DNA from: Deltaproteobacteria bacterium
GTDB lineage: Bacteria; Desulfobacterota; Dissulfuribacteria; Dissulfuribacterales; UBA3076
Length of the DNA stretch: 64,000 nt
Reading direction: 5' to 3'
Assembly (NCBI GenBank): GCA_018399745.1
Contig: JAGYNZ010000001.1
Coordinates: 37,948 to 101,947, forward strand
The position numbers and the translations under genes were made by a program. The notes beneath the pieces were generated by a model. That model searched no databases, was not told the origin of the DNA, and saw only the letters and a program-made list of their open reading frames with translations. This document shows, piece by piece, positions 26,914 through 39,286 of the stretch. Numbering within the stretch: position 1 is the stretch's first letter; every line of letters starts with the position of its first letter.

Positions 26914-27273
26914 ATGAATAAAGAAAAAATACTCATAGTTGATGATGAAGAGAGTATTCATCTCCTTTACAAGGAAGAGTTGGAAGAAGAAGGCTATGAA
27001 GTCTACTCGGCGATGAGTGGAGAAGACGCCCTTAAAGTATTTGATGCTCAGGAACCGGATCTCGTCATCTTAGATATCAATATGCCCGGTATGGACGGCA
27101 TAGAGGTACTCCGTCAAATGAAACAGAAAAAACCCCGGGTGCCTGTTATCTTGAGTTCTGCTTATCCTGAATATAAACAGGATCTGGCATCGTGGGCCTC
27201 GGATGACTATATAGTCAAATCTTTTAACTTAGACGATCTCAAATCCTCTGTTCGTAGAAATTTAACCAAATGA
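26914..27273 (+). CDS. Stand-alone response regulator (receiver domain only)
   Basis: ILIVDDE, ILDINMPGMDG, SSA and YIVK motifs. Confidence 0.92.
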   Translation: MNKEKILIVDDEESIHLLYKEELEEEGYEVYSAMSGEDALKVFDAQEPDLVILDINMPGMDGIEVLRQMKQKKPRVPVILSSAYPEYKQDLASWASDDYIVKSFNLDDLKSSVRRNLTK

Positions 27274-28761
27274 AGCGGAAAAACGAGAATTTGGCCCAGA
27301 AGCTAAGGAAACTGATTTTCTTAATGGTTCTTGCATCTTTGATGTTGTCACCTTAAATATCACTGTCTGAGAACCCGAATTGCCTGAAACGTATATATTG
27401 ACTCCATATTTCTTTTTTAAAAGCGGTAAAATATGAAGGCTGGGATCTTTATCTAAAGGGGTATTCAGAGCCTTTCCGTTGTGGCTGATACGGAGGACCA
27501 AGTCTTCATCCTCTTTAAAAGTTTGAATCGACATCCACATATTGTCAAGAGTTGCCATCTGCTTCATCAGAACTAGACACAGAGCTAAAAATGCATTGGC
27601 CCACTCTGAATAATTTCCATACAGTAGAGGGAGGTCAGGAAATAAAGATACCTGCTTGTTTATCTTTCTGAAAAAGAAATGGAGATCTAAAATTCTTAGC
27701 TCATCTTCTATCATACTGTTCAAGGAAAACGGCACCACTGCTCCTATTGTCTCATTTTTTCTTCTAAGAGCAATGGCCCAACAAAATTCGGTTATTTGAC
27801 CTGTTATGATCTGAATTGATTTGATATCAGCGACCCAATCCTTTATCTGTGTTTCATCTATGGGAATTTCACATCTGGATATTTTTTGAGCCATAAGATC
27901 TAAACGCCCAATTATGGCAGATAAAGGATTTGCAATATCCTCAAGGAGATCATCGAACAGTTGGCCAAAAATCAAATGCCTGTACTGTTGCCACAGGGTC
28001 TCTTCCCTAGCTTTCTCCCTATCCTGTAATAGATGTAGTGCAGTGACATCACGATTGCGCAAAAGCAGACCTATTGTATCCCCACCAGGGCCAATTAAAG
28101 GCAAAATCCAGATATTATAATATTTATTATGACAATTCGGATCACTTAACCACGGCAAGTTGCAAGGGAAAGAGCTTATTCTAACGTCTTCTTTATCAAT
28201 CATTGCCTTATCGAACAGTTCTTTAAAAGAAGCCTCTCCTTTCGAACCCTTATATAGTGAGCAAATCTCTGCAAAATTTTTTCCACGGAGTTCTTTAGGA
28301 TCTCTTGGCAGGCAAAATGGCTGATTAATGTTGGAAAAAACAATATTAAGCTTGGAATCAAAGATCAGAATTCCATCATCCAGACTATCTAAAAGATATT
28401 GAAAATAAATTAAATGACTGAGTTCAGTCTCAAGACCTTTAACCAGATCAGAAATAGAAAAAGGCCAATTAGTTGCATCTTCAAAGGCTATTCCACTTCT
28501 AAATTTGCCTTTATCTTTTTTAACCCACTTAATTTGCCCTTTCACAATATAATCGTTACCAGGGCCTTTTTCACCAGGCCCGAGAGTCACGGTCTCATGA
28601 TGACGCACAGGGATGTCAGACTTAATCTGTATGCCGTACGGACTCAAATCAGTTGAAACTGCACTGATAGCAGTTCCAAGGGCTTCTGTTTCTAAGCACA
28701 GAGAAACATTTAGCGGTATTCGTAAAAATCGACGCCGCTCTTTGTGGACTCCTTGTTGCAC
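27262..28761 (-). CDS. PilZ-PAS-degenerate histidine kinase-like protein
   Basis: PilZ motifs RRRFLR and DLSPYG; PAS start LLDSLDDGILIFD; HisKA-like GQLFDDLLEDIANPL with no His; eroded HATPase. GTG start with AAGGAG RBS. Confidence 0.8.
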   Translation of the reverse strand: MQQGVHKERRRFLRIPLNVSLCLETEALGTAISAVSTDLSPYGIQIKSDIPVRHHETVTLGPGEKGPGNDYIVKGQIKWVKKDKGKFRSGIAFEDATNWPFSISDLVKGLETELSHLIYFQYLLDSLDDGILIFDSKLNIVFSNINQPFCLPRDPKELRGKNFAEICSLYKGSKGEASFKELFDKAMIDKEDVRISSFPCNLPWLSDPNCHNKYYNIWILPLIGPGGDTIGLLLRNRDVTALHLLQDREKAREETLWQQYRHLIFGQLFDDLLEDIANPLSAIIGRLDLMAQKISRCEIPIDETQIKDWVADIKSIQIITGQITEFCWAIALRRKNETIGAVVPFSLNSMIEDELRILDLHFFFRKINKQVSLFPDLPLLYGNYSEWANAFLALCLVLMKQMATLDNMWMSIQTFKEDEDLVLRISHNGKALNTPLDKDPSLHILPLLKKKYGVNIYVSGNSGSQTVIFKVTTSKMQEPLRKSVSLASGPNSRFSASFG

Positions 28762-28818
28762 AGAGTCTCCTTATGGAAAAATTGTTATATTTAGAAAAAA
28801 CTTAACGAGTAATTTAAC

Positions 28819-28834
28819 TGCAAATAAGGTACCA
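28819..28834 (-). promoter_or_regulatory. Sigma54 (-24/-12) promoter upstream of the PilZ gene
   Basis: Minus strand TGGTAC-CTTAT-TTGCA, exact GG-N10-GC spacing, 58 nt before the start codon. Confidence 0.7.
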
Positions 28835-28893
28835 AAATAAAAAAAATTTATATTCAACATTCGGGAGTACAAACTAATATTTAAGCATCTTTA

Positions 28894-28945
28894 ATGATAA
28901 TGAGAAAAGCTTTTCCATTTATAGAAAAGCTTTTCTCATTATCAT
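28894..28945. repeat. Perfect 22-bp inverted repeat containing two GAAAAGCTTTTC palindromes; candidate enhancer (UAS)
   Basis: ATGATAATGAGAAAAGCTTTTC-catttata-GAAAAGCTTTTCTCATTATCAT; no U-tract on either side. Confidence 0.9.
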
Positions 28946-28970
28946 CGTTACTATTGCCAAATATCAAAAA

Positions 28971-30056
28971 TCATGAGAATGGTTCCAGTTCTTTGGGCAA
29001 CGTTAGCTCCAAGCTATCGTCAGATGAATCTCTGGCCGACACTTCTACCCCAAAATCCTTTATCTTATAAAGAAGTGCCTTGTAACTTATTTGGAGTAAT
29101 TGAGCAGCCTGTTTGCGATTACCATTAGTCCGCCTTATGGCCTCTTCTATTACGGCCTTCTCTATACGAGCCAGACTTTTTTTTCGGATTTCCTTTAAAG
29201 ACGGGAACTTTATTTGCATTTCATGTCTACAGTTATCTAGTACGGAATTTATCAGAGATTCATCCGGCATCCATACTTCAGCAACAGATCGATCTTCCGA
29301 CATTTTTTGGCCCTTGGACCTAAGGATCTCTTCTTCGAGCAAATCAGCGTCCTCCAGGACTATCAACCTCCTCACATAGTTTTCAAGCTCCCTTATATTC
29401 CCAGGCCAATGATATTCCGCAAATACCTTTTCAAGCTTACTGGGTATATCAATTACTCCACACTTGGACATGCCTTTGTACTTTCGAATAAAGTGTTCAA
29501 TAAGATATGAAATATCTTCCTTTCTGTCCCGAAGCGGGGGAACCACTATCTTTATAATATTGATTCGGTAATAGAAATCTTCTCGAAACCTACCTGTACT
29601 TACATCTTCCTCAAGATTGTGATTAGTAACGGATATCACCCAGGTATTGACATGAATATTCCTCACCCCGCCTACACGAGCAAATTCTGAATCCTGTAAT
29701 ACCTGTAAAAGTTTGGCCTGCAGTGCGACGGGCATATCGCCAATTTCGTCTAGTAGTATGGTCCCCTTGTTAGCCAATTCAAACTTTCCGGGCTTTGGCT
29801 GTACCGCCCCGGTAAATGCACCACGCTCATAACCGAATAGCTCGCTCTCAAGAAGCTCGCTTGGCAGTGCAGCACAATTAACCTTGACGAGAGGATGCTC
29901 CCGACGATAAGAAAGCTGGTGCAGTGTACGGGCAACCAGTTCTTTGCCTACACCGCTTTCTCCGCAAATAAGGACATTTAAATCGGTGTCCACTACCTGG
30001 TTTATCAGATCCTTGATGCGCCTTATCGGTGGGCTATTGCCAATCATTAAGTTCAT
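28971..30056 (-). CDS. Sigma54-dependent activator (bEBP) lacking an N-terminal regulatory domain
   Basis: GESGVGKE, GAFTGA, ILLDEIGD, WPGNIREL and a Fis-type HTH; only about 4 aa precede IGNSP, with in-frame TAA TAA just upstream. Confidence 0.9.
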   Translation of the reverse strand: MNLMIGNSPPIRRIKDLINQVVDTDLNVLICGESGVGKELVARTLHQLSYRREHPLVKVNCAALPSELLESELFGYERGAFTGAVQPKPGKFELANKGTILLDEIGDMPVALQAKLLQVLQDSEFARVGGVRNIHVNTWVISVTNHNLEEDVSTGRFREDFYYRINIIKIVVPPLRDRKEDISYLIEHFIRKYKGMSKCGVIDIPSKLEKVFAEYHWPGNIRELENYVRRLIVLEDADLLEEEILRSKGQKMSEDRSVAEVWMPDESLINSVLDNCRHEMQIKFPSLKEIRKKSLARIEKAVIEEAIRRTNGNRKQAAQLLQISYKALLYKIKDFGVEVSARDSSDDSLELTLPKELEPFS

Positions 30057-30354: not shown

Positions 30355-31317
30355 TTGTCTGAATTTTTAGAATCATCTGACAACCAAATAAATTTGATCC
30401 CCAAAAAACTGTCACAAAAGCCACAAGAGCTCCTAATTGTTGACGACGATCCTGCTATAAGAAGTTTGCTGACAGAATTTCTTTCCCGTTTGGGGCACCG
30501 ATGTCGTTCAGCGGTTGACGGTCTGGAGGCCATGTCATTGTTAAAACAGTCCCCCAGCACGATCGTAATCACTGACTTCCAGATGCCCAGAATGGATGGA
30601 ATGGAGCTTATTCTAAAAATCAAAAAACTCTGGCCTGAAACCGACGTAATAGCAATAACAGGATATGTTCGAGACTTTAATTACACCGACGTTATTAAAG
30701 CCGGGGCATCTGACTTCATTCAAAAACCCTTTCACCTTGACGAGTTAGAGGCCAAACTCAACAGAATAACTATAGAACGTGGATATAGGACCCTGCTGCA
30801 AAGACTTTCTACAAGAGATGTCCTCACAGATCTATACAACAGACGCTTTCTCGACCAAAAACTTGAAGAGGAGGCCCAAAGAGCCACCCGGCAAAATTAT
30901 TTTCTGTATCTAATTATATTAGACCTGGATAATTTCAAAGAACTAAATGACACCTTGGGGCATCAGGCAGGAGACAAAATACTCCAGCGCTTAGCTGAGA
31001 TTTTGAGTAATTCCATCAGGAGTAATGTTGATATTCCATTTCGCTATGGAGGAGATGAATTTGCTGTAATGATTCCCCAGGCCGACACGGAGCAGGTAAA
31101 CCAGATAGCAGAACGTATACAAAGCAATTACATGAATGAAGATATTGGCAAAACTTCACTTAGCATTGGTATCTCCCGTTTTAGGAGAACAAACAAGAGT
31201 TTGCGAGAAGATATCAACAATTTTATACGTGAAGCCGATAACTCAATGTATGCTGCAAAAAAAACAGGGGGTAATAAAATAATATTTAACGAAGAAATTA
31301 AAACGGTGGGTTCTTGA
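30355..31317 (+). CDS. Response regulator-diguanylate cyclase (REC-GGDEF)
   Basis: LIVDDD, ITDFQMP, DLDNFKELNDTLGHQAGD and RYGGDEF motifs. Confidence 0.93.
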   Translation: MSEFLESSDNQINLIPKKLSQKPQELLIVDDDPAIRSLLTEFLSRLGHRCRSAVDGLEAMSLLKQSPSTIVITDFQMPRMDGMELILKIKKLWPETDVIAITGYVRDFNYTDVIKAGASDFIQKPFHLDELEAKLNRITIERGYRTLLQRLSTRDVLTDLYNRRFLDQKLEEEAQRATRQNYFLYLIILDLDNFKELNDTLGHQAGDKILQRLAEILSNSIRSNVDIPFRYGGDEFAVMIPQADTEQVNQIAERIQSNYMNEDIGKTSLSIGISRFRRTNKSLREDINNFIREADNSMYAAKKTGGNKIIFNEEIKTVGS

Positions 31318-37886: not shown

Positions 37887-39286
37887 CCCCATGTAAGGTA
37901 ATGATGTATTGAATCAGAGGCCTTTCTGCCCGCCCCCATGGCCAAAATGACCGTCGCCTGGCCAGTGACGATATCCCCCCCGGCCCATACGCCTCTCTTC
38001 GTGGTCTTGCCTGTCTGAAGATCTGCCACTATATAACCCCACTTATTGGTTTTCAGATCTTCGGTTGACCCGGGCAAAAGAGGGTTGGCGCCTGCGCCAA
38101 CAGCAATAATCGCCAGGTCGCACTCCATCTTGAACTCGGAGCCTTCTACAGGTAAAGGACGCCGTCGTCCTGATTCGTCGGGTTCACCCAATTTCATTCG
38201 GAGACACTCTATACCTGTCAGACGGGCCTTTTCATCACCCAGGAACCTGGTAGGTGCTGTGAGCAGAAAGAACTCAACACCCTCCTCTTCTGCGTGATGA
38301 GTCTCAGCAAATCGAGCAGGCATTTCATCCCTGGATCTGCGGTAAACGATGCGCACTCTATCAGCACCCAGACGCATGGCAGTACGTGCGGAATCCATTG
38401 CCACATTTCCCGCCCCGAATACAGCCACATTTTTACCTCTGACAATAGGGGTATCGTATTCAGGGAACATGTATGCCTTCATCAGATTGGCCCGGGTCAG
38501 ATACTCGTTTGCTGAATATATACCGGAAAGATTCATACCGGGGACACTTATAAAGGCAGGCAGACCCGCCCCGACTCCTATAAAGACGGCGTCAAACCCA
38601 TCTCTTGTGAGAAGCTCGTTAACTGTACGGATATTCCCAATAACAGAATCGAGCTCTATCTCTACACCCATTCTAAACAGAAAATCGATTTCTGCCTCAA
38701 CTATAGACTTGGGAAGACGAAATTCAGGAATGCCATAAAAGAGGACCCCTCCCGGCTTGTGCAGGGCCTCGAATATGACTACATCATGTCCCAATCTGAC
38801 AAGATCACCTGCCACAGTCAGACCGGAAGGTCCGCTGCCAACCACGGCAACCCTTTTGCCGGTAGACGAGGCCTTTTCTGGCAACTCGATCAGGTTGTTA
38901 TCCCTTTCGTAGTCAGCGCAGAAACGTTCCAGATTGCCGATAGCAACGGGATCACCCTTTTTGCCTAGAATACATCCGGATTCACACTGAATCTCTTGAG
39001 GACATACCCGGCCGGTTACGGCGGGCAGGGCATTTTTCTCCTTGACCGTCCTTGCCGCTGCGGCAAAATCACCCTTTGCTATAAGTGATAAGAATTTCGG
39101 GATGTTTACCTGAACCGGGCAACCACTCATACAACCCGGCTTCTTGCAATTAAGGCAGCGTTTCGCTTCTTTGACAGCCGCTTCAGGGGAATAACCATAC
39201 GGGACCTCTTCGAAATTTCTTACCCTCAACTCAGGTAATTGCTCCGGCATGTGTTGTCGGGAACTCTTTTTGTCCTCGTTTTTCAT
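37880..39286 (-). CDS. nfnB: NfnB/GltD-like NADPH-dependent Fe-S flavoprotein (Nfn large subunit)
   Basis: EAKRCLNC..CMSGCP, GRVCPQE..CE, VGSGPSGL, YGIPEFRLP, FGAGNVAMD and AGGDIVTG motifs; no glutamate synthase large subunit nearby. Confidence 0.85.
   Translation of the reverse strand: MKNEDKKSSRQHMPEQLPELRVRNFEEVPYGYSPEAAVKEAKRCLNCKKPGCMSGCPVQVNIPKFLSLIAKGDFAAAARTVKEKNALPAVTGRVCPQEIQCESGCILGKKGDPVAIGNLERFCADYERDNNLIELPEKASSTGKRVAVVGSGPSGLTVAGDLVRLGHDVVIFEALHKPGGVLFYGIPEFRLPKSIVEAEIDFLFRMGVEIELDSVIGNIRTVNELLTRDGFDAVFIGVGAGLPAFISVPGMNLSGIYSANEYLTRANLMKAYMFPEYDTPIVRGKNVAVFGAGNVAMDSARTAMRLGADRVRIVYRRSRDEMPARFAETHHAEEEGVEFFLLTAPTRFLGDEKARLTGIECLRMKLGEPDESGRRRPLPVEGSEFKMECDLAIIAVGAGANPLLPGSTEDLKTNKWGYIVADLQTGKTTKRGVWAGGDIVTGQATVILAMGAGRKASDSIHHYLTWGW

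Follow-up and report, generated by a model that had tools for sequence, protein, structure and literature searches.

How a sigma-54-dependent activator that carries no sensor domain of its own is put to use, and by what it might be controlled, is the question raised by a compact locus in the genome of a Deltaproteobacteria bacterium (GenBank assembly GCA_018399745.1, contig JAGYNZ010000001.1, forward-strand positions 37,948 to 101,947; this stretch of 64,000 nucleotides is referred to here as the window, and coordinates are counted from its first letter). The locus comprises a gene for such an activator, or bacterial enhancer-binding protein (bEBP), a tandem pair of palindromes, a -24/-12 promoter and a gene for a PilZ-PAS pseudo-histidine kinase. 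Sequence comparison strongly supports the view that these parts make up a real enhancer-promoter unit, a sigma-54 switch that is conventional in kind. What is new is the activator family, which is neither PspF nor HrpR/S, the single PilZ-PAS-pseudokinase target, and the possibility of control in trans by cyclic di-GMP (c-di-GMP). The parts of the unit are as follows.

28971 to 30056, minus strand: sensor-less sigma-54 activator (bEBP) of 361 aa; AAA+ domain with GAFTGA, lid, HTH_8 and C-terminal tail (Pfam)
28894 to 28945, no strand: inverted repeat of two identical palindromes and their flanks; potential RNA or DNA hairpin
28923 to 28936, no strand (minus-strand reading given): predicted distal enhancer site AGAAAAGCTTTTCT, centre -121.5
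28903 to 28916, no strand (minus-strand reading given): predicted proximal enhancer site GGAAAAGCTTTTCT, centre -101.5
28819 to 28834, minus strand: predicted sigma-54 promoter TGGTACCTTATTTGCA, with GG at 28833-28832 and GC at 28821-28820
28762 to 28808, minus strand: predicted leader of 47 nt, with Shine-Dalgarno AAGGAG at 28772-28767 and GTG start at 28761
27262 to 28761, minus strand: target gene, 499 aa; PilZ (8-96), PAS (124-243) and DHp/CA-like pseudo-histidine kinase (Pfam, fold)

The public records that fall into the same genus are Seep-SRB2 genomes (E20, FWG174, UBA3076 and Meg19_1012_Bin_147). Seep-SRB2, which corresponds to the GTDB genus UBA3076 in the order Dissulfuribacterales, consists of uncultured, sulfate-reducing bacteria that are syntrophic partners of anaerobic methanotrophic archaea (PMC10553843). 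Our literature search found nothing that links c-di-GMP, PilZ or sigma-54 to Seep-SRB2, and it returned neither a PilZ protein acting on a sigma-54 activator nor a PilZ-pseudokinase.

A predicted enhancer and promoter of fixed geometry

A stretch of 209 bp separates the stop codon of the activator from the next minus-strand gene, and the palindrome GAAAAGCTTTTC occurs twice in this interval, at 28904-28915 and 28924-28935, with 20 bp from start to start. Transcription is predicted to begin near 28808, as reckoned from TGGTAC-N5-TTGCA with the C of the GC at -12, and the inverted repeat therefore comes to lie at -86 to -137. The initial annotation had given this promoter, the same distances and the 20-bp interval between palindromes, all of which are correct. 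Enhancers of bEBPs are tandem dyad-symmetric sites located about 80-150 bp upstream on one helix face (PMC7057263), a rule to which the sites in the window conform with centres at -101.5 and -121.5, 20 bp apart; a narrower form of the rule gives about 100-150 bp. The spacer between enhancer and promoter contains an A/T-rich tract, and the genus alignment, read by eye, reveals no convincing match in this spacer to the binding consensus of integration host factor (WATCAA-N4-TTR). Downstream, AAGGAG sits 5 nt ahead of the GTG at 28761, and the block AAGGAG[A/G]CTCTGTG is kept in the genus alignment.

The wiring suggested by these positions can be examined in relatives. Orthologous loci were collected and their inter-gene spacers oriented, which yielded 33 loci with both genes and 32 loci evaluable for sites; sites were scored as the best matches to RGAAAA-N2-TTTTCY (0-3 mismatches) at offsets of 20-150 bp, with a reporting threshold of 8%. 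A GG-N10-GC element with TTGCA/T is present in all 33 loci, and every one of the 32 has two RGAAAA-N2-TTTTCY sites upstream of the -12 GC, one 89-93 bp and the other 109-115 bp away from it, across a range of 55-100% identity for the activator and 27-100% for the target. Apart from a weak A/T tract, which 12% of loci have at 23 bp, no other offset rises above the threshold. Promoter and start codon are separated by anything from 54 to 292 bp in these loci, while the distance between enhancer and promoter shifts by only 2-3 bp. Insertions of ~150 bp (L013), 220 bp (L007) and 1.4 kb (L037) have come to lie between the activator stop codon and the sites, which in each case remain with the promoter. 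In one genome (G053) the activator gene is found on another contig, and the target retains TGGCATTATATTTGCA together with two sites 92 and 111 bp upstream. An epimerase gene separates the two genes in Thermosulfuriphilus, where one site and a sigma-54-like promoter precede the pseudokinase homologue.

The tandem motif also follows the gene pair through whole genomes. Among the 18 genus genomes scanned, the 15 with the gene pair contain it exactly once each, always at this locus, the 3 without the pair do not contain it, and a reversed-pattern control gave 0 matches in every genome. The window's own genome has a single tandem site pair. A scan of this 2.65-Mb genome (45.5% GC) for GAAAAGCTTTTC, which the initial annotation had recommended, recovered 3 copies against ~0.2 estimated by chance, namely the tandem pair discussed here and one further 12-mer inside a coding region on C11. 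The absence of a second tandem site from the window's own genome and from all 18 genus genomes indicates a regulon of one promoter. Activator and target are present in 37 and 38 of 61 relatives, respectively, and co-occur with one mismatch, which is accounted for by a contig whose end falls shortly before the target gene, on its upstream side. Since the motif tracks the gene pair, and since the recognition helix ISYKA in the helix-turn-helix (HTH) domain is invariant in 31 activator orthologues, as set beside the conserved GGAAAA half-site, the adjacent activator is by far the most likely protein to occupy the sites.

Collectively, the fixed geometry, the sites that track the promoter and the co-occurrence of the two genes support the proposal of the initial annotation that the activator drives the PilZ-pseudokinase gene, and support the view that the palindromes act as the enhancer of that gene's -24/-12 promoter. 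We consider the wiring from activator through enhancer to promoter to be highly probable on these comparative grounds. A few observations weigh against it. The promoter consensus by itself is not rare, with 34 strict matches in the genome against an estimated ~15 expected; the sites form a strong hairpin in the genus, followed by a T-rich tract, TTATTTTGTT, in most genus relatives; and the activator of Thermodesulfatator has no pseudokinase neighbour within the 9 kb examined. On this reading the locus is a very clean natural example of sigma-54 control, with one activator, one enhancer and one promoter whose geometry is held within 2-3 bp across an order.

Two further blocks of sequence lie close to the promoter. 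Just 5' of the -24 element (~28838-28851, minus strand), genus relatives have an A5-6-N2-T4 tract, for example GAAAAAGATTTTGT, with 2 mismatches to the site consensus and 23 bp upstream of the -12 GC. This is the tract seen in 12% of loci, and it is not conserved beyond the genus; a weak third site, a bend and plain A/T-rich DNA are all possible readings of it. Within the leader (28775-28795, minus strand; ~+14 to +34) is a genus-conserved block, ACATGACAGTTTTTCCA, with a half-site-like TTTTCC just before the ribosome-binding site.

A family of activators without a sensor domain

The activator was initially annotated as a bEBP with intact GAFTGA and HTH and no N-terminal domain, and both Pfam and direct reading of the sequence agree. 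Sigma54_activat (PF00158) spans residues 4-170 (E 1.2e-66), AAA_lid_14 residues 176-256 and a Fis-type HTH_8 residues 295-335 (E 6.8e-13), and the Pfam scan of the 361-aa protein detected no domain N-terminal to the AAA+ domain. Walker A (GESGVGKE), Walker B (LLDEIGD) and the GAFTGA loop (ERGAFTGA) are all intact. A TAA stop lies immediately 5' of the ATG, and the 361 aa make up the entire open frame. The 298 bp upstream of the gene, common with a divergent REC-GGDEF gene, are conserved and non-coding. For this reason, and because a 100-aa open reading frame (ORF) located there has no Pfam match, the idea of a degraded receiver 5' of the activator was rejected. This upstream region has neither an RGAAAA-N2-TTTTCY site nor a GG-N10-GC element, so that the idea of autoregulation was dropped as well; a conserved block 5' of the gene is sigma-70-like in appearance, and no obvious ribosome-binding site precedes the gene.

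The genome encodes rpoN and 16 sigma-54 activator genes with a full score, among which the 361-aa protein is the only sensor-less one. The only other short frame, of 355 aa on contig C17, was considered as a second sensor-less activator and rejected, since it represents a frameshifted copy of a receiver-containing activator. At that position outside the window (C17:12974-14285), a REC-AAA+-HTH activator, next to small genes of toxin-antitoxin-like type, is split by the frameshift into ORFs of 346 aa and 139 aa. Either the gene is a pseudogene or the assembly is in error.

Whether the activator might be a truncated response regulator can be judged from its relatives. Orthologues were sought in 61 related genomes and found in 37 of them (56-100% identity), and 31 were extracted for alignment. 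The open frames, matched through residue 1, encode 347-386 aa, and all 31 open with M-x-x-[IM][IV]G-x-S, where the AAA+ domain begins. The best 120 database homologues are 334-405 aa in length and have AAA+, lid and HTH as their only Pfam domains, in a search whose length filter admitted receiver-containing activators of ~450 aa. Thus no sensor domain was found, by Pfam or by alignment of start sites, in any of the best 120 homologues or the 31 orthologues. The initial annotation had advised looking for REC domains in the homologues as a sign of truncation; none carries one, the truncation reading fails and the family is genuinely sensor-less. As far as the alignments go, they show the sensor-less form to be ancestral in it.

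The activator scores below every NCBIfam equivalog cut-off. Against the PspF models it reaches 265.0 bits, where the cut-off of TIGR02974 is 443.55, and 209.9 bits, where that of NF008622 is 529; a HrpR/HrpS pair is likewise not in evidence, as the gene is single in the genome and has no tandem sensor-less paralogue. By these scores and gene counts the protein is a member of an uncharacterised sensor-less bEBP family that is distinct from PspF and from HrpR/S. Among the domain-less types that the initial annotation had cited for comparison, PspF and HrpR are apt; FlgR is not, being a response regulator that retains its receiver according to the NCBIfam description.

Two regions outside the named domains are conserved in all orthologues. 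A tail that follows the HTH (residues ~336-361; 28971-29051, minus strand) reads S-L-E-L-K-L-P-K-E-L-E-x-F in the genus and h-x-h-x-h-P in more distant orthologues, and the linker between lid and HTH has a W-x-P-D-E-S-L-I-N-S-V motif. Because most sigma-54 activators have the HTH as their end, the tail and the linker motif may be docking sites for a partner. More distant sensor-less homologues, of 344 aa and ~53% identity, occur on the metagenome contigs L050 and L051. There the first activator gene is followed by a sigma-54 promoter and lies beside a divergent gene for a 110-aa stand-alone PilZ protein, with a second activator and genes of polysaccharide export (Poly_export, Wzz) located downstream.

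The target: a c-di-GMP receptor fused to a dead kinase

The gene that the enhancer appears to serve is monocistronic. Its product begins with a PilZ domain (PF07238, E 3.9e-6) in which both c-di-GMP motifs are present, R10xxxR14 (RxxxR) and D38-L-S-P-Y-G43 ([D/N]xSxxG), and R10, R14, D38 and G43 are invariant in 15 target homologues. In its C-terminal half, Pfam recognizes neither HisKA nor HATPase_c. The AlphaFold model (mean pLDDT 74.7) matches PAS-DHp-CA histidine kinases, and the fold matches include NifL as solved in complex with NifA (9qq6_A, E 7.7e-12), along with the pseudokinase DivL (4q20). At the H-box position (LLEDIANPL) 15 of 15 members have Glu or Asp where a kinase would have its phospho-accepting His; the G1 box reads HNGKA and the G2 box is missing. 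Glu or Asp in place of His, a degenerate G1 box and no G2 box within a histidine-kinase fold identify the protein as a PilZ-PAS pseudo-histidine kinase, so that its earlier labelling as a PilZ-pseudokinase was well chosen. Judged by its motifs, then, the target is a c-di-GMP receptor of the PilZ type fused to a dead histidine kinase, and this receptor is the only target that we can see for the activator family.

The inverted repeat: by-product of the enhancer or terminator

The two palindromes had initially been described as parts of a perfect 22-bp inverted repeat. The palindromes themselves stand, but the repeat does not as a conserved feature, being strong in the genus only. In the window its arms (28894-28918 and 28921-28945) are 25 nt long and 96% complementary, the stem begins 25 nt past the activator stop codon, and its predicted folding energy as RNA is -40.4 kcal/mol (z = -8.5). 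In 12 of 14 loci of the genus the hairpin is much more stable than shuffled sequence (z -5 to -13.6). Most of the distant loci show no such advantage over shuffles (z -0.4 to -3) and keep the positions of the sites, the hairpin of these relatives being weak because their two sites differ from one another. The long inverted repeat arises because two identical palindromes lie side by side.

A different view would be that the hairpin works chiefly at the RNA level, as an intrinsic terminator or as a stabiliser of the 3' end of the activator mRNA, and not as a protein-binding enhancer. The stability of the stem and its position 25 nt after the stop codon would suit such a function, as would the TTATTTTGTT tract 3' of the stem in most genus relatives and the changes in the stem flanks that preserve pairing in the window, L003 and L004. 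However, the fold is no longer strong in most of the distant loci, with no change in the positions of the sites, and where insertions have occurred or the activator gene has been relocated, the sites follow the target promoter and not the activator 3' end. In the window itself, moreover, no T-tract follows the stem, which was not flagged by a terminator scan. We therefore regard an RNA element as the main function of the hairpin to be most improbable. That the sequence has a dual role, as an enhancer and as a secondary terminator within the genus, strikes us as unlikely, if far from fanciful. A comparison of the palindrome with Rfam gave only sub-threshold matches to eukaryotic microRNA hairpins, taken to be artefacts that any long hairpin would produce, and Rfam found no c-di-GMP riboswitch.

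Within the genus the two enhancer sites appear to change together. In L012 each of them is GAAAAATTTTTC; the spacer of 6 bp between the sites is found in either orientation, ATAAAT or ATTTAT, depending on the genome; and the stem flanks change compensatingly in the window, L003 and L004. Concerted evolution of this kind would fit template switching within a quasi-palindrome, and it may reflect the secondary terminator role considered above.

How the activator might be controlled

The course of events at this locus might run as follows. The activator would be expressed from its own, probably sigma-70-type, promoter, and its dimers would bind the two 14-bp palindromes (RGAAAA-N2-TTTTCY), which are two helical turns apart at about -101.5 and -121.5. 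An active ring would then form and the DNA would loop over the A/T-rich spacer, whereupon ATP hydrolysis would open the sigma-54 closed complex at TGGTAC-N5-TTGCA. The sole promoter served would be that of the adjacent, monocistronic PilZ-PAS-pseudo-histidine kinase gene. Binding, looping and the start of transcription are inferred here from the sequence, as is the control in trans of an activator that has no sensor of its own.

Insights into what such control might look like can be drawn from a number of known systems. PspF is controlled by PspA and HrpS by HrpV, in both cases in trans (PMC7057263). Like the activator examined here, PspF of the E. coli phage-shock response consists of AAA+ and HTH only and acts from tandem upstream sites on a sigma-54 promoter, and pspA, the first gene of the operon that it activates, encodes its inhibitor, which is the loop proposed below (PMC7057263). 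The target in the window, in contrast, is a PilZ-PAS-pseudokinase and not a coiled coil of the PspA/IM30 type, and the activator is not an orthologue of PspF; Pfam matched no PspA domain in the 10 neighbouring genes scanned. HrpR and HrpS of Pseudomonas syringae are sensor-less as well, with HrpV as a small trans-acting partner (PMC7057263), but they form an obligate pair of paralogues, whereas the present genome has a single sensor-less gene.

NifL has PAS domains and a histidine-kinase-like transmitter that performs no phosphotransfer, and it blocks a sigma-54 activator by stoichiometric binding (PMC12998190). The occurrence of NifL from Azotobacter vinelandii (9qq6_A) among the fold matches of the target, together with the missing His, is in keeping with a partner of this type. 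The likeness is one of fold and has its limits: NifA retains a GAF sensor, nifL is co-transcribed with nifA and is not its target, and the protein from the window has PilZ (c-di-GMP) for its input domain and Glu or Asp at the place of the His. A pseudo-histidine kinase with PAS domains is also seen in DivL, which is without the phospho-accepting His and reads a single-domain receiver by binding to it. With the DivL-DivK system of Caulobacter crescentus the locus shares a fold match (4q20) and a conserved single-domain receiver gene that abuts the target, a likeness drawn from fold and gene context; DivL differs in having no PilZ domain and no link to sigma-54.

By analogy with NifL, PspA and HrpV, and given the strict co-occurrence of activator and target, the target, the likeliest of the candidate controllers, might feed back on the activator in a NifL- or PspA-like manner, with c-di-GMP as the input through PilZ. 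We offer this as a tentative idea, somewhat on the unlikely side; a plain relation between regulator and target would explain the strict co-occurrence too. In its specific form, in which the pseudokinase would be a c-di-GMP-gated, NifL-like partner that binds the activator, sets its activity and closes a loop on one sigma-54 promoter, it is a speculative proposal that we would hold with some doubt.

Instead of being held by a partner, the activator might be constitutively active and limited by its own amount, the PilZ-pseudokinase being purely an output that does not feed back. The isolated AAA+ and DNA-binding portions of sigma-54 activators are often active alone, as in PspF and NtrC1, which speaks for such an arrangement, and so does Thermodesulfatator, which has the activator without the pseudokinase; the want of an obvious ribosome-binding site suggests, in addition, low and expression-limited levels of the activator. 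On the other hand, the activator and the pseudokinase are gained and lost together, another class has the activator paired with a pseudokinase homologue that lacks PilZ, the fold of the target is NifL-like, and the two characterised sensor-less systems considered here, PspF and HrpR/S, do have a trans-acting partner (PMC7057263). Purely constitutive action thus appears possible to us and rather doubtful.

The signal might also enter the activator directly. FleQ of Pseudomonas aeruginosa, a sigma-54 activator tied to c-di-GMP, is the best match among solved structures by sequence over AAA+ and HTH (E 4e-76), and the locus is rich in c-di-GMP genes, so that direct sensing in the AAA+ domain, as in FleQ, has to be considered. 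FleQ differs in having an N-terminal REC-like domain besides its own c-di-GMP binding, and it is described in one account as being controlled in trans by the antiactivator FleN (PMC8528422). The binding residues of FleQ are mostly not kept in the activator. Of R144, R185 and N186, which the literature names in connection with c-di-GMP, an alignment read by eye retains R185 alone, the position of R144 aligning to N2 and N186 to T; E330 and R334 (ExxxR), which we take to be c-di-GMP-binding residues also, align to H and K. Membership of the activator among the FleQ-type c-di-GMP-binding AAA+ proteins was rejected, since R144 of the LFRS motif, N186 and ExxxR are not kept, and direct sensing seems very unlikely. 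Phosphorylation in trans offers another route, in which the stand-alone receiver encoded at 26914-27273 would be the detached receiver of the activator in a kind of split NtrC. Receiver domains from AtoC and NtrC are among its best matches in NCBIfam, a stand-alone receiver gene adjoins sensor-less activator homologues in several other lineages, and the neighbourhood of activator and receiver-GalT-GH57 genes is kept even in Thermodesulfatator. Yet 58 of 61 relatives have the receiver (74-99% identity), the genomes without the activator among them, and its gene invariably comes after those for the GalT-like and GH57 proteins, on the opposite strand. Its primary partner must for that reason be something other than the activator, and a dedicated detached domain is improbable.

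Trans-acting control of an activator that would drive a c-di-GMP receptor is of interest for what it might imply. If the receptor does control the activator, c-di-GMP would have a new route to sigma-54, in trans through PilZ, whereas FleQ binds the nucleotide directly; no regulatory circuit of Seep-SRB2 would have been worked out before this one, and PilZ proteins might turn out to be a general trans-acting sensor module for sigma-54 activators. If the feedback is false, what is left is a well-supported but ordinary promoter annotation.

Neighbouring genes, distant loci and inserted elements

The activator has PilZ-PAS, REC-GGDEF, REC, GalT-like and GH57 genes as its neighbours. Two of these flank the unit directly.

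30355 to 31317, plus strand: REC-GGDEF diguanylate cyclase, divergent (Pfam, NCBIfam)
26914 to 27273, plus strand: stand-alone receiver gene, convergent; 12 bp of overlap between its 3' end and the target gene

Roughly half of the examined relatives have the REC-GGDEF gene in this divergent position, and its product is a possible local source of c-di-GMP. The receiver (119 aa), wherever it occurs after its GalT-like (DUF4921) and GH57 companions, is convergent with whatever gene lies beyond. It may regulate glycogen or sugar metabolism, or it may partner the pseudokinase in the manner of DivK and DivL.

In the class Thermodesulfobacteria, an orthologous sensor-less activator gene is followed by a gene for an NAD-dependent epimerase (L082, 4001-7124; L081, 4001-6422). 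The epimerase gene of Thermosulfuriphilus (L082) is followed in turn by the sigma-54-like promoter and a 307-aa DHp-CA-like homologue without PilZ, which matches the pseudokinase with an hhalign probability of 97% (E 4.9e-11). Since the pairing reaches a PilZ-less homologue in another class, the comparison suggests that the partnership of activator and pseudokinase is old and that PilZ joined it later. Thermodesulfatator (L081) has kept the convergent receiver-GalT-GH57 block and is missing the pseudokinase.

Inserted elements are also seen at the locus within the genus. An element of ~150-220 bp, which starts with CATCCTTCACGACAAGTCAAAAGTAGTT(T/C)ACACTTT..., has been inserted at three places of the locus in three genus genomes: in the inter-gene spacer (L007), in the leader of the PilZ gene (L012) and upstream of the activator gene (L056/G002). 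A second palindromic element (..GTTCACAGGGTACCGC.. / AACCGTTCACGGGTTCAAAG..) is found in L013, G013 and G016. Both look like small mobile repeats, similar to miniature inverted-repeat transposable elements (MITEs), that are active in Seep-SRB2 genomes.

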